Of a DNA stretch of 64,000 nt, positions 45,184 through 61,622 are shown piece after piece; the first letter of the stretch is position 1, and each line of letters opens with the position of its first letter. Where the stretch lies: the NCBI GenBank assembly GCA_963839205.1, contig CAWITU010000002.1, positions 772 through 64,771 of the forward strand. The letters run 5' to 3'. The DNA is from an uncultured bacterium (GTDB taxonomy: Bacteria; Patescibacteriota; Minisyncoccia; Phycocordibacterales; CAWITU01). Under the pieces are notes generated by a model. The model was not told the origin of the DNA and searched no databases. It was given only the letters and a program-made list of their open reading frames with translations. A program made the position numbers and the translations under genes.

Positions 45184-46648
45184 TTATTTCACCCAGTATT
45201 TTTTATTGATCTCCCCTATTGATTCTTCCTCAAGTTTTTCTTTCATTTCCTTGCCCTTCTCTCCTAATTTCAAAAGTTCTTTATCGCTCATTTTAGCCAT
45301 ATTCTTAGCCTCTTTTTCTAGATATTCTTCGGTATTTAATTCAGGATTTTCTAATACTTCTTCCAATAATGCGTGTAGAATTTGACCAATCTTTGGTCCA
45401 GGTTGAAGCTTTGTAATATCAATTATTTTCTGACCATTTATTTTTAGCATTGAAACCGACAATGGATCTCTCATCGCCTGTTCAATCATTGCTGTATATT
45501 TTCTAAGTCGATATGGACTTTCTTTTGGTCTCCCTGTTCCAATACGATCACACATTCTAACTTTCATTAAATTCCAAATATTTTCAGGACCAACATTTCT
45601 TACCATTCTACGAACAGCAGATAAAGTTATTTGTTCGGTGTCAGAAAAAAACATGTGCCACCTAACAAGGTTGCTCACATCGTCAACTGTCTTTTTGGGA
45701 AATTTTAGATCAGTCAGTGTCTTTTTGGTTATTCTGGAACCAACAACGTCATGTCCGTAGAAAGTCCATTCCTTTTTAGGCTCTGAATAACGCCTGGTGT
45801 GAGGTTTGGCTATATCATGAAACAAAGCCGCTAATCTGACCTCTAATGGCCAATTCTTGTCCGCAGAGTGCTGTACAGTCCTAAGTAGGTGTTCCCATAC
45901 CTCATAGGCATGGGCTTTGTTTTGTTTGATTCCAATGCTTTTCTCAAGTTCTGGAGCAATAAATGGTAGTAAACCTATATCCTGAGCCATAATGATACCT
46001 TTCATTGGGTTTTTAGACATAAGAATTCTAATGAATTCCTCTCTGAATTCGCTCTTTAGCGATGCTTTCTAGGTGTTTCACATGTAACATCATGGCCTTT
46101 TTGGTATCCATGTTAATCGTGAAACCTAATTCTGAGGCAAAACGGACAGCTCTGAGTATTCGGAGGGCATCCTCAAGGAATCTTTCCTCTGGCTTCCCTA
46201 CCGCTCTAATCACTTTGTCCTTTATATCCTGTTGTCCTTTATAAGGATCAACGAGCGTTTCGTTTTCCTCATCATAAGCAATTGCGTTGATTGTGAAGTC
46301 TCTCCTCTTTAGATCATCAACAAGATTCTTACTAAATGTAACTTTATCTGGGTGGCGGAAGTCGCTATAAGTAGTTTCAATTCTGTATGGTGTTACCTCT
46401 ATCACCTTCAGGGTTTCGTCGGTTGTTTCCTCGTTAACTATGCCAACCGTTCCATATTGGTTTTCATAGAAAGTTTTTACAAAAAGTGCCTGAATCTGCT
46501 CAGGGTTTGCATTCGTAGTTATGTCCCAATCCTTTGGCTTTCTCTTCAAGATTAAATCTCTAACACAACCACCCACTAAATAAGCCTCAAAATTGGCTTT
46601 TTTGAGGGTTTCGGTTATTCGTGAAACTTCTTTAGGGATACCTTTCAT
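45184..46648 (-). CDS. cca: CCA-adding tRNA nucleotidyltransferase with HD domain, split by one frameshift at about 46025
   Basis: ORF 46028-46648 has LVGGCVRDLILKRKPKDWDITT and RDFTINA. ORF 45184-46020 has the HD domain (LFHDIAKP). The junction KERI|REEFIRILMSKNP is restored by a 1-nt frame change. Confidence 0.85.
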
Positions 46649-46777: not shown

Positions 46778-46845
46778 CAACTATATATCCTGGCAAGGTC
46801 AAAAAATTTCTGATATATTAAGTCAGCTTTTCGCGACTACGTGAA

Positions 46846-46883
46846 GCGGGCCTGCCCCGCCGTAGCTCACGAAGTGAGCGAAG
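46846..46883 (+). promoter_or_regulatory. structured tRNA-Gly(GCC) leader: acceptor-like minihelix + GAA-loop hairpin
   Basis: GCGGG-cctgc-CCCGC (46846-46860), then GCTCAC-gaa-GTGAGC (46865-46879), ending 4 nt before the tRNA. In an alternative pairing, TGCCCCGCC pairs with the tRNA 5' strand GGCGGGCA. Confidence 0.6.
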
Positions 46884-46957
46884 GCGGGCATGGTTTAGTG
46901 GTAGAACACATCCTTGCCAAGGATGAGACGGGAGTTCGATTCTCCCTGCCCGCACCA
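46884..46957 (+). tRNA. tRNA-Gly (anticodon GCC), CCA encoded
   Basis: Acceptor GCGGGCA/TGCCCGC, anticodon arm CATCC-TTGCCAA-GGATG, T-loop AGTTCGATTCT, 3' ACCA. Confidence 0.95.
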
Positions 46958-48785: not shown

Positions 48786-49982
48786 TTAGTAGTGACCAGG
48801 GTTAGCTTTAATAAGTTCCTGGGCGAGGGGAATACCGGGGCCATTTTCGAAATCGGTTTTGAAAATGGCCCCGGCGCCCGTCACAATATCATTAAGACTT
48901 TCATTAATATTTGCTTGAAGACTTCGATTTATATATGAAGTTGAAATTGCATCTAAACTTCTTCCCCCCGTTGAGGAGTCGTCCATTGATGTGGAAACAA
49001 TACCGATGAGTTGATTGTTTGAATCAGTGATTGCTCCGCCGGATGAGCCTTTTTGCGCTACGTTTGATAGTGGCAAGAGAAATTAGATCAGAACTATTAT
49101 CTGAATTAAAACTATATATATTCTCAACTTTTCCGGTTTCCGAAATTAGATTTAGATTATTTAATACTTGGTCGCCAGAAGAATTTCCAGCAGGATAAGC
49201 CGTTGCCTTGGCTTGGGTTAAAGAAGTTTGGTCTTGGGTATTTATAGTAATAATTTTTGGAGCCACAGTTTTATTTTCACCAGTGATCTCCAAAAGTCCG
49301 TAGTCATATTCTCCGGTACCTTCTGGATTGTTTTGCGAAATAGCAGTTAGGTTATTTTTAATCCATTGTGGTGGCTCATAAAGAACTTTTAATGAATAAA
49401 GAGTTTTGGCAGGGGAGCCGACTCTGCCAACACAGCTTCTATTTGGATCATTTAAATAATCATCAATCAGAACATATTGAGCGACGTGAGCATTAGTCAA
49501 AATGACATCTTGGGAAATAATAACACCGCTGGCAGTAACCATGGTTATATTATTTCCGACTCTAGTGGTGCAAAAAATATTAACGACAGAATCTGATGGG
49601 GTTGTGGCATTTTGGCTTGGAGGAAGGGCAACATTAGTACTTTGTTTTAGGTTTGTTAAGCCAACTGGTGCGCTCGGTTGAGTTGGTTGGGTGGAGTTGC
49701 TGTTGTTCGAAGATTGGTAGAAACAGTTTTTAGTGGAACTTGTTTAAAATCCGGTGCGACAATTTTCAAATAGGGAAGCGTGGCATTTTGATTCGCAGTA
49801 ACTTGTGGTTTTGCTTCTGGTTGAAATCCAATTACATCTGATAATCCAATTTGAGTATTACTTGAAGTTGCTTGTGGAGGTTTCGATTAATAGAACTTGT
49901 CGTACTTGAACTGAATAGGGAAGAGAGCAAGAAAAATAATGAGAAGACGGTATTAATGACAGATACGGTGGCTGTAGGTCAT
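48786..49982 (-). pseudogene. membrane-anchored trypsin-like (S1/HtrA-type) serine protease, multiply frameshifted
   Basis: His motif ILTNAHV (ORF 49024-49542) and Ser motif GSSGGA (ORF 48786-49076) are in different frames. The N-terminal parts (TM segment, VVNIFCTTRVGNN) upstream of 49542 need further frame changes. The start is tentatively ATG 49982. Confidence 0.65.
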
Positions 49983-50041
49983 AGGAAGAGTATATCAAAA
50001 TTGTCTGAAATAGATTGGTCTGATATATTAATGAAGCTTTG

Positions 50042-50091
50042 GCGGGCTTGCCTCGCGAAGTCCTGCTTCGCTGAAGCTTCGCAGGACGTAG
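50042..50091 (+). promoter_or_regulatory. structured tRNA-Gly(UCC) leader: acceptor-like minihelix + hairpin
   Basis: GCGGG-cttgc-CTCGC (50042-50056; 13/15 identical to the motif at 46846), then GTCCTGC...GCAGGAC (50060-50087), ending 4 nt before the tRNA. Confidence 0.6.
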
Positions 50092-50162
50092 GCGGGATTA
50101 GTTTAATGGTAGAATAACAGTTTTCCAAACTGTGGGTGGGAGTTCGATTCTCCCATCCCGCA
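50092..50162 (+). tRNA. tRNA-Gly (anticodon UCC), no encoded CCA
   Basis: Acceptor GCGGGAT/ATCCCGC, anticodon arm ACAGT-TTTCCAA-ACTGT, T-loop AGTTCGATTCT. Confidence 0.9.
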
Positions 50163-50170
50163 TAAATGCA

Positions 50171-50198
50171 AAAGGTCAGGACTTGTTCCTGGCCTTTT
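50171..50198 (+). terminator. rho-independent terminator after tRNA-Gly(UCC)
   Basis: AAAGGTCAGGA-cttgt-TCCTGGCCTTT, followed by a T run. Confidence 0.75.
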
Positions 50199-50317
50199 GT
50201 ATTTACTGCTATTCATTAGAGAGAATCGAAAGCCGGAGCGAAGTTGCTATGTCGCAATCAATCTTCAGCGACAAGCAACGAGCGAGGCGGGGTCGCGGAA
50301 ATTTTGCGCAGCAAAAT

Positions 50318-50338
50318 TATCCGTAACCGATTCTCCAT
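50318..50338 (+). repeat. degenerate direct copy of the tRNA-Gly(UCC) 3' end (att-like scar)
   Basis: AACCGATTCTCC-ATCCCACA compared with the tRNA 3' end GTTCGATTCTCCCATCCCGCA. It lies about 155 nt downstream of the tRNA. Confidence 0.6.
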
Positions 50339-50367
50339 CCCACAGATTAGTATAAGAATGGTAAAGC

Positions 50368-61318: not shown

Positions 61319-61555
61319 ATGATAAGCCATTCATTCTTGTTTTTATTAGCCCTGTTGGTTATTTGGAGCCTCGTTTGGAAAGGTTTGGCCCTTTGGAAGT
61401 CAGCCAGACGCGATGATTTATGGTGGTTCCTTGCAATTCTTATCATAAACACGGCTGGTATTCTTGAAATAATTTACATTTTCTTCATAGCTAACGGTCC
61501 TGATAAAGAAAAATCAAGGATCGAAGTTGATATTGAGATAGGAAAGAAAGAGTAG
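61319..61555 (+). CDS. small two-TM membrane protein (DUF5652-like, tentative)
   Basis: LVWKGLALWKSARRDDLWWFLAILIINTAGILEIIYIFF resembles a small membrane protein family common in small-genome bacteria. Confidence 0.55.
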   Translation: MISHSFLFLLALLVIWSLVWKGLALWKSARRDDLWWFLAILIINTAGILEIIYIFFIANGPDKEKSRIEVDIEIGKKE

Positions 61556-61560
61556 CTACT

Positions 61561-61598
61561 CTATCGCACTTGTCTTAGAATATTGAAAACAGGAGGAG
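61561..61598 (+). repeat. partial copy of the tRNA-Ser D/anticodon-arm region with a 7-nt insertion in the anticodon loop
   Basis: CTATCGCACtTGTCTT[AGAATAT]GAAAACAGGAGGaGT compared with the tRNA-Ser internal CTATCGCACCTGTCTTGAAAACAGGAGGGGT. It lies 24 nt upstream of the intact gene. Confidence 0.7.
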
Positions 61599-61622
61599 TG
61601 AAAATTATTTCAGGATATCAGT

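Follow-up and report, generated by a model that had tools for sequence, protein, structure and literature searches.

Structured leaders that copy the acceptor strand of tRNA-Gly: a putative RNA family of uncultured Patescibacteria with a possible role in tRNA maturation

We analysed a 64,000-nucleotide stretch of DNA (the window; contig CAWITU010000002.1, positions 772 to 64,771) from an uncultured member of the Patescibacteriota, in which both tRNA-Gly genes are preceded by a leader that repeats the 5′ acceptor strand of the tRNA itself. The proteins encoded in the window are bacterial, among them PolA, a class A penicillin-binding protein, PNPase, RNase Y and a type IV pilus ATPase, and the G+C content is 34-43%. 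The next relatives of the RNase Y are 80-83% identical, and those that carry a name belong to Candidatus Paceibacterota, Parcubacteria or Patescibacteria. There are six tRNA genes, four of which do not encode CCA; tRNA-Arg, tRNA-Gly(GCC), tRNA-Pro and tRNA-Gly(UCC) lie within one 3.5-kb stretch of the + strand. Both tRNA-Gly genes were called by ARAGORN and Rfam (Table 1).

An initial annotation of the window had reported similar 15-mers upstream of the two tRNA-Gly genes, and the coordinates and identity were confirmed: GCGGGCCTGCCCCGC at 46846-46860 and GCGGGCTTGCCTCGC at 50042-50056 agree at 13/15 positions. Searching both strands of the 64 kb with the degenerate 15-mer (up to 2 mismatches) gave these 2 matches only, against 0.03 expected, and none of 100 shuffles contained two or more. 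The remaining tRNAs of the window (Arg, Pro, Ser and Lys) were likewise checked and, as had been stated for Arg, Pro and Ser, none has the motif. Each 15-mer forms stem-loop 1 of a 38-50-nt leader, and the sequence supports the earlier description of it as a repeat of the tRNA 5′ acceptor strand paired with a copy of the 3′ acceptor strand. At both loci the last base of the leader is position -1 of the tRNA (G46883 before G46884, G50091 before G50092), and both tRNAs start with GCGGG. A second hairpin with a GAA-type loop, four nucleotides from the tRNA, had been described for both leaders. This holds for the GCC locus, where GCTCAC-GAA-GTGAGC at 46865-46879 is followed by GAAG and then the tRNA. 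It does not hold for the UCC locus, where a 7-bp stem (GTCCTGC/GCAGGAC, 50060-50066 / 50081-50087) encloses 14 nt, with GAA (50057-50059) on its 5′ side and GTAG on its 3′ side. The UCC copy also lacks the C that usually pairs with G-1. A match of 13.9 bits between the interior of the UCC hairpin and the reverse complement of the stem-loop 2 core is probably due to the palindromic GAAGCTTC and was not used.

The initial annotation had not remarked that the two loci also share their promoters. Upstream similarity comprises AGCTTT and the common TCTGATATATTAA, which forms an extended -10 promoter with a plausible -35 box; an archaeal TATA box was ruled out by the bacterial gene content and the good extended -10 match. 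With a start ~7 nt past the -10 box the leader on the transcript would therefore be about 56-58 nt long, and no terminator-like site was found between leader and tRNA. The window leaders are thus presumably transcribed, as far as the promoter sequences indicate.

Table 1. Features of the two tRNA-Gly loci in the window.
Feature	Position	Strand	Description
Promoter-like site, GCC locus	46790..46819	+	CTGGCA, 18-nt spacer, TG-n-TATATT (extended -10); includes 13-mer TCTGATATATTAA
Extra small 5′ hairpin, GCC copy only	46830..46845	+	UUCGCG-ACUA-CGUGAA; predicted only
Decoy GCGGG, GCC copy	46846..46850	+	Repeats tRNA nt 1-5; forms the 5′ side of stem-loop 1
Stem-loop 1 loop, GCC copy	46851..46855	+	CCUG + extra C; CYUG type
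Anti-acceptor CCCGC + C, GCC copy	46856..46861	+	Candidate partners: decoy (stem-loop 1) or G-1 + tRNA nt 1-5
Stem-loop 2, GCC copy	46862..46883	+	GUA / GCUCAC-GAA-GUGAGC / GAA / G(-1); GNA/GNA 3x3 internal loop; ends at tRNA -1
tRNA-Gly(GCC)	46884..46957	+	A73; CCA encoded
Promoter-like site, UCC locus	50001..50029	+	TTGTCT, 17-nt spacer, TG-n-TATATT; same 13-mer TCTGATATATTAA
Stem-loop 1, UCC copy	50042..50056	+	Decoy GCGGG 50042-46, loop CUUGC 50047-51, anti-acceptor CUCGC 50052-56; one G-U pair
Stem-loop 2, UCC copy	50057..50091	+	GAA / GUCCUGC-[UUCGCUGAAGCUUC]-GCAGGAC / GUA / G(-1)
tRNA-Gly(UCC)	50092..50162	+	A73; no CCA encoded

Two further features absent from the initial annotation are the large family to which the leaders belong and a C-GNA...GNA-G internal loop that abuts tRNA +1. 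A pattern of GCGGG-N3-6-CYCGC-N12-42 joined to the 5′ start of such a tRNA-Gly gene was run against metagenome contigs and yielded at least 120 loci (loci bear the prefix L throughout) with 99 distinct sequences from more than 40 samples; 88 leaders were parsed. Most of these contigs come from the Rifle and Hainich groundwater sites. Both arms of stem-loop 1 and the tRNA start were imposed by the pattern, and their conservation and covariation therefore carry no weight. Among the matches listed, the consensus reads (A) GCGGG CYUG CCCGC C-GNA-G(hairpin)C-GNA-G and runs directly into GCGGG of the tRNA; the features outside the pattern are common to ~90% of these matches, the pattern being loose enough to admit some chance matches. 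The 3′ GNA-G strand has the G in 84/88 parsed leaders, the A in 83/88 and G(-1) in 81/88, and the loop of stem-loop 1 is CTTG or CCTG in 42/88. The same 88 leaders contain 59 different inner hairpins, whose stems of 2-12 bp retain Watson-Crick or G-U pairing and whose loops are often C(UUCG)G, C(UACG)G, C(UGCG)G or G(CUUG)C. Across eight ungapped 24-nt middles the upper stem is 100% paired with six double changes, which 0/500 shuffles equalled, and in the short class the loop-closing pair of stem-loop 1 alternates between C-G and U-A. Moreover, in a syntenic group with the order tRNA-Pro, spacer, leader, tRNA-Gly(UCC) (8 distinct sequences), mean identity is 0.61 in the spacer, 0.81 at the unforced leader positions and 0.91 in the tRNA. 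The GNA/GNA internal loop, which probably consists of tandem sheared G-A pairs, is not a DNA palindrome, and the RNA-type features lie on the tRNA-sense strand.

Both window copies have the GCGGG, 3-7-nt loop (mostly CYUG) and CYCGC of the family, and their 5-nt loop (CYUG + C) recurs in L141, L149, L168, L184, L192 and L222. A covariance model of the short class scores the GCC copy at 38.6 bits (E 1e-6), with the C-GNA...GNA-G loop present. The UCC copy scores 16.9 bits (E 0.05), with GAA...GUA-G present and the first C missing, and is a diverged member. A filter-free search of the window with a covariance model gave only these two copies. The leader has no Rfam match at E up to 10, and a literature search returned no description of such a tRNA-Gly leader; the TIGR or box C/D-like arrays of Candidate Phyla Radiation (CPR) bacteria were considered, and no relation to the leader was found. 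Taken together, the family is very probably real and its RNA structure under constraint, and the cassette belongs, as judged from sequence, to a previously uncatalogued RNA family, probably of uncultured Patescibacteria.

Variants of the cassette were also encountered. L022 (383-481), from Saccharibacteria, and L230 form a second leader class in which GCGGG-TTTA-CCCGC is followed by a perfect inverted repeat of 17-21 bp (21 bp in L022) that includes tRNA nt 1-5; these leaders have no GNA/GNA loop, and the length of the duplex suits an RNase III-type substrate. At L179 (3779-3802) the decoy, anti-acceptor and downstream target are changed in concert (GCGGA-CTTG-TCCGC-CGAAG-GCGGA), and this variant precedes a GC-rich structured stretch that is not a tRNA and has no Rfam match.

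Three segments make up the cassette, namely a decoy GCGGG that matches tRNA nt 1-5 exactly, an anti-acceptor CCCGC-C and a GNA/GNA-flanked hairpin that ends at tRNA -1, and these would permit two alternative folds. In an open state the anti-acceptor would pair with the decoy to form stem-loop 1 with its CUUG-type tetraloop, leaving a normal cloverleaf and a free RNase P site. In a masked state it would pair with G-1 and tRNA nt 1-5, lengthening stem-loop 2 into one long hairpin, while the decoy would take the tRNA 3′ acceptor strand; the result would be a five-armed tRNA-like fold with the true 5′ end buried. The helices exchanged are identical in sequence, so branch migration could convert one state into the other. 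Each fold was enforced in turn and evaluated with nearest-neighbour energies. The masked fold is predicted to be the more stable in 76/85 precursors among the matches listed, by a median of 4.7 kcal/mol; these energies take no account of the tertiary structure of the tRNA or of the kinetics of folding during transcription, both of which should tip the balance towards the open state. At both window loci the masked fold is also the minimum obtained without constraints, at -58.9 versus -52.8 kcal/mol for GCC (a difference of 6.1) and -49.0 versus -45.9 kcal/mol for UCC (a difference of 3.1), and the RNAalifold consensus of 17 Gly(UCC) precursors is also the masked fold. The pairing of TGCCCCGCC with GGCGGGCA at the GCC locus, put forward by the initial annotation as an alternative, thus coincides with the predicted minimum-free-energy structure of the precursor, and the competition with acceptor-stem formation that it foresaw is supported in the predicted folds. 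Stem-loop 1 is transcribed first, before the masked-fold partner; at the window loci the masked fold is predicted to be preferred as soon as tRNA nt 1-8 have been made.

The base at the cleavage site differs as well. Element-free tRNA-Gly genes in Patescibacteria have leaders of only a few bases, usually ending in U, and position -1 is U in 55/74 element-free tRNA-Gly genes, compared with a paired G in 88/99 element-bearing ones. Bacterial RNase P prefers U(-1) and a single-stranded leader. Our preferred, if tentative, explanation is a two-state leader that would act in cis to gate or delay acceptor-stem formation and RNase P cleavage of tRNA-Gly, RNase P finally discarding the cassette; its design sets a perfect complement of the tRNA 5′ end beside the cleavage site, provides a strand that competes for it and substitutes a paired G for U(-1). 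From the modelled folds we infer that both states may be present in the cell and that the switch would affect maturation. In Escherichia coli, RNase P cleavage has been switched on and off by a synthetic leader hairpin that sequesters the bases adjoining the cleavage site (PMC7897497), and CPR bacteria keep an RNase P RNA that is often diverged (PMC8172020). The initial annotation had named three possible roles (control of RNase P processing, a decoy minihelix, or the scar of a hairpin element), of which the first appears the best supported.

We also considered a cis-acting chaperone for a misfolding tRNA-Gly, for which no support was found. Mature tRNAs with and without the leader form the acceptor stem at a penalty of ~0.1-0.3 kcal/mol (75 vs 37 genes, p = 0.07); they fold correctly alone, and therefore the leader solves no evident folding problem.

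The distribution of the element bears on the gate. Among the matches listed, 877 kb of carrier loci contain 339 tRNA genes, and the element precedes tRNA-Gly(UCC) 56 times, tRNA-Gly(GCC) 32 times and tRNA-Gly(CCC) 25 times (113 Gly genes in total). It was further seen ahead of four tRNA-Pro(UGG) genes and one tRNA-Trp gene, and before 0 of the ~190 other tRNAs in these loci; every target tRNA begins (G)CGGG. Several observations weigh against a role in gating, in addition to the tertiary structure and kinetics mentioned above. Spacing from the element to +1 is zero nucleotides in the Gly genes; at tRNA-Pro the tRNA starts one base 3′ of the element's GCGGG, and this one-base offset of the RNase P site from the element argues against fine tuning to the cleavage site. 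Where a locus has two tRNA-Gly genes, only one carries the element in 24/25 other loci, and both carry it in the window alone. Furthermore, five syntenic loci from three distinct relatives, found via RNase Y homologues and ~73-77% identical to the window in DNA, preserve the order RNase Y, HU, tRNA-Gly(UCC), protease, tRNA-Pro, tRNA-Gly(GCC), tRNA-Arg and CCA enzyme. The initial annotation had staked its claim on conservation upstream of tRNA-Gly in related genomes, and this stood in part. The motif is strongly conserved upstream of tRNA-Gly in at least 100 other contigs and almost never lies away from tRNA 5′ ends. The leader is absent from both orthologous tRNA-Gly loci of the closest relatives available (L121-L125), where only 8-10 nt separate the -10 box from the tRNA. 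Therefore, the window leaders are lineage-specific additions. A paceibacterotal locus with the same synteny (L072) has a decayed copy at its UCC locus, GCGGGCTTAGCAGCTGCAGCTTTAGCAGAG directly before GCGGG. In an unbiased sample (one genome per species, with only the tRNA 5′ half as pattern) the canonical leader preceded 0 of ~33 tRNA-Gly genes of the Patescibacteria type (A73). On these comparisons the leader is dispensable. Lastly, there are tandem double copies (L135, L184 and L162), Gly and Pro copies in L193 that are 47/47 identical in unrelated flanks, near-identical copies in L227, and seven solitary, mostly degenerate copies away from tRNAs in 463 kb of carrier loci, all of which suit a selfish element. 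L227 also has the window's arrangement of tRNA-Arg and tRNA-Gly(GCC) with the downstream sequence, and its leader there is canonical.

The main rival explanation, which we rate as somewhat less likely than the gate, is a small hairpin repeat, selfish or neutral, that is of no benefit to the host and persists only in pre-tRNA leaders, where RNase P removes it. Such a repeat would be copied between GCGGG sites by a transposase, or by microhomology template switching or slippage on the 5-nt direct repeat, and would keep the decoy to stop the anti-acceptor from capturing the tRNA 5′ strand. Besides the tandem, solitary and identical copies, the patchy distribution with close relatives lacking the leader, the decayed orthologous copy in L072, the GCGGG that borders every copy on both sides, other small insertions and duplications at tRNA genes of the same genomes, and the unaided folding of the mature tRNAs all speak for it. 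A scar of a hairpin element that duplicated GCGGG, as the initial annotation had suggested, fits the same copies and leaves the RNA-type conservation unexplained. Target-site duplication at an ancestral tRNA start was rejected: the -10 spacing suits the UCC locus of the window (12 vs 10 nt in leader-free relatives), but the reading fails across the wider family, with its spacing of 14-24 nt. Against the repeat, the loops are of types specific to RNA (CUUG, UNCG) and occur on the tRNA-sense strand, the conserved GNA/GNA loop is non-Watson-Crick, divergence is compensatory, and in the syntenic clade the leader is more conserved than the neighbouring spacer. A neutral passenger would be expected to decay fast, loss of CCCGC being harmless, yet CCCGC and the G-A loop are kept. 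Nor are there dispersed copies in the 64-kb window or any leader match in viral contigs (IMG/VR), the latter leading us to reject a phage origin. A tblastn search for a Y1 (HUH) transposase in the window and ~1.2 Mb of carrier-locus fragments with an IS200 TnpA query, itself approximate, gave nothing better than E 1.7.

Alternatively, the leader might be a protein recognition module, such as a site for an endonuclease or RNA-binding protein, or act in trans after its release as a stable small RNA or decoy for acceptor-stem enzymes or toxins. The strict G and A of both GNA strands and closing C-G pair below a freely varying stem are typical of a protein-binding internal loop, the spacing to tRNA +1 in Gly genes is exactly zero, and stem-loop 1 equals acceptor pairs 1-5, including the 1:72-3:70 identity pairs of glycyl-tRNA synthetase. 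However, the loci examined have no conserved neighbouring gene and offered no candidate protein, the second leader class (L022, L230) does without the GNA/GNA loop, and stem-loop 1 lacks a free 3′ end, the next base being C rather than the A73 discriminator; nothing directly supports a trans-acting decoy minihelix, and we regard this family of explanations as unlikely.

More speculatively, the masked precursor could itself be the product. Under such a pro-tRNA scheme, which we think improbable, a ligand-free RNA gate would have the decoy provide a Gly-type acceptor end (G1:C72 to G3:C70, A73), the first RNase P cut would fall at the decoy, and the real 5′ end would be locked in the extra arm of the masked fold. 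The stable five-armed glycine-acceptor RNA so formed might be a non-ribosomal Gly carrier or a storage form that would return to the open fold on demand. Finally, that the 15-mer is an internally deleted tandem tRNA-Gly pseudogene is very hard to credit: GCGGGC + CTGCCC(C)GC resembles the 5′ strand of tRNA-Gly(GCC) joined to its T-arm end and 3′ strand, and partial tRNA duplicates lie nearby in this and related genomes, but a single short consensus, comprising a CYUG loop and a second hairpin unlike any part of a tRNA, is common to more than 100 loci, UCC, GCC and CCC isoacceptors all have this GCGGG-CYUG-CCCGC before them regardless of nt 6-7, and ARAGORN and Rfam detect no residual D, anticodon or T arm in the leader.

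Other features of these tRNA genes and their surroundings were recorded. The tRNA-Gly genes here (window 46954, 50162) and in other Patescibacteria have the A73 discriminator, which is the archaeal and eukaryal type, U73 being usual in bacteria. Upstream of an intact tRNA-Gly gene in L163 (2283-2420) and L072 (5795-5880, - strand) there is a duplicate of an 18-20-nt 5′ fragment of the tRNA, separated by 24-53 nt. In the window, 61553-61600 holds a partial copy of the D and anticodon arms of tRNA-Ser(UGA) upstream of that gene, with a 7-nt insertion in the anticodon loop, and is a decayed duplicate or recombination remnant. In L173 and L218 the tRNA-Gly after the leader has a long insertion in the anticodon arm and was not called by ARAGORN; these may hold group I introns, which have been reported in tRNAs of CPR bacteria (PMC8172020). 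Immediately 3′ of tRNA-Gly(UCC), a lineage-specific insert of ~180 nt (50163-50344), absent from L121-L125 and without Rfam match, contains a terminator-like hairpin (50172-50205) followed by a strong fold (minimum free energy -50.7 kcal/mol, z -5.0). Its outer helix, GAGAAUCG/CGAUUCUC, uses a decayed direct repeat of the tRNA 3′ end (CGATTCTCC-ATCCCACA at 50328-50344 versus 50145-50162). The same insert follows tRNA-Gly(GCC) in L135 and L240, with a perfect 18-nt repeat, and looks like a small integrated element or a structured RNA of no known family. Two neighbouring genes on the - strand are interrupted. The CCA-adding enzyme (45184-46648) has a frameshift near 46043-46056 that yields open reading frames of 206 and 278 aa, compared with 489-497 aa in relatives, and is a pseudogene or an assembly indel; a trypsin-like protease (48798-49817) is in three frame-shifted pieces, its orthologues being intact at ~375 aa. 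Since both lie within 5 kb of the leaders, single-base indels, including the extra C (46855) and T (50053), may be errors.

Bacterial pre-tRNA leaders are normally seen as disposable segments, short and without structure. The leader described here is conserved and structured, copies the acceptor strand of its tRNA, is predicted to bury the RNase P site and probably recurs in many CPR lineages. A cis-acting leader would add a new layer of control on the supply of one tRNA in organisms with minimal regulatory repertoires, and if the pro-tRNA scheme were true it would be the first natural case of tRNA supply controlled by a leader mimicking its own acceptor strand. If it is a selfish repeat, it would define a new niche for mobile DNA, a tRNA leader with a built-in antidote strand. 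Either way, there is now a defined family for a covariance model and a test system of ~130 nt for in vitro work, and a source of tRNA-gene misannotation in CPR genomes has been flagged.

Several known systems invite comparison. The masked precursor resembles archaeal split and intron-containing tRNAs in being a tRNA with an extra acceptor-stem arm, here between nt 5 and 6. A bulge-helix-bulge intron was rejected, as the two 3-nt GNA strands are directly opposed rather than staggered by 4 bp and the gene content is bacterial; unlike in archaeal intron tRNAs, splicing would be unnecessary because the 5-nt duplication is present. Acceptor-stem minihelix and microhelix substrates, such as the Schimmel-type microhelix-Gly, are well known, and stem-loop 1 likewise reproduces G1:C72 to G5:C68 of tRNA-Gly; it differs in being internal to the transcript, only 5 bp long and devoid of a discriminator A or CCA, and there is no sign of charging. 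Repetitive extragenic palindromes (REP), bacterial interspersed mosaic elements and IS200/IS605-derived palindromes are, like the leader, imperfect GC-rich hairpins of small size that occur in multiple copies, at times in tandem, and unevenly among relatives. In both, too, a short complement of the flanking site lies on the 5′ side of the hairpin foot, as in the guide/cleavage-site pairing of IS608. The copies described here differ in lying almost only at tRNA 5′ ends, in one orientation and with RNA-type tetraloops, and the many dispersed extragenic copies characteristic of REP/RAYT and IS200/IS605-derived palindromes are not seen in the 64-kb window, which has only the two tRNA-linked ones. 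Attenuators and riboswitch platforms (1:2 / 2:3 / 3:4) have a comparable logic of four segments, two exclusive pairing schemes and order of transcription; unlike in these, there is no terminator or ribosome-binding site here, the output would be tRNA maturation, and identical helices would allow an exchange resembling branch migration. A riboswitch, T-box or attenuator of known type was rejected, given the Rfam result and the lack of a terminator-like site reported above. A further parallel is the synthetic RNase P riboswitch of Ender et al. (2021; PMC7897497), in which a hairpin in the pre-tRNA 5′ leader likewise hides or exposes the region of the cleavage site to control processing, and in which one base pair beside that site is decisive. 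That device is engineered around a theophylline aptamer and masks leader bases only, whereas the leader described here is natural, has no recognisable aptamer, would mask tRNA nt 1-5 themselves and brings its own decoy strand. A leader of this kind that acted in cis would be the natural equivalent of that engineered switch.

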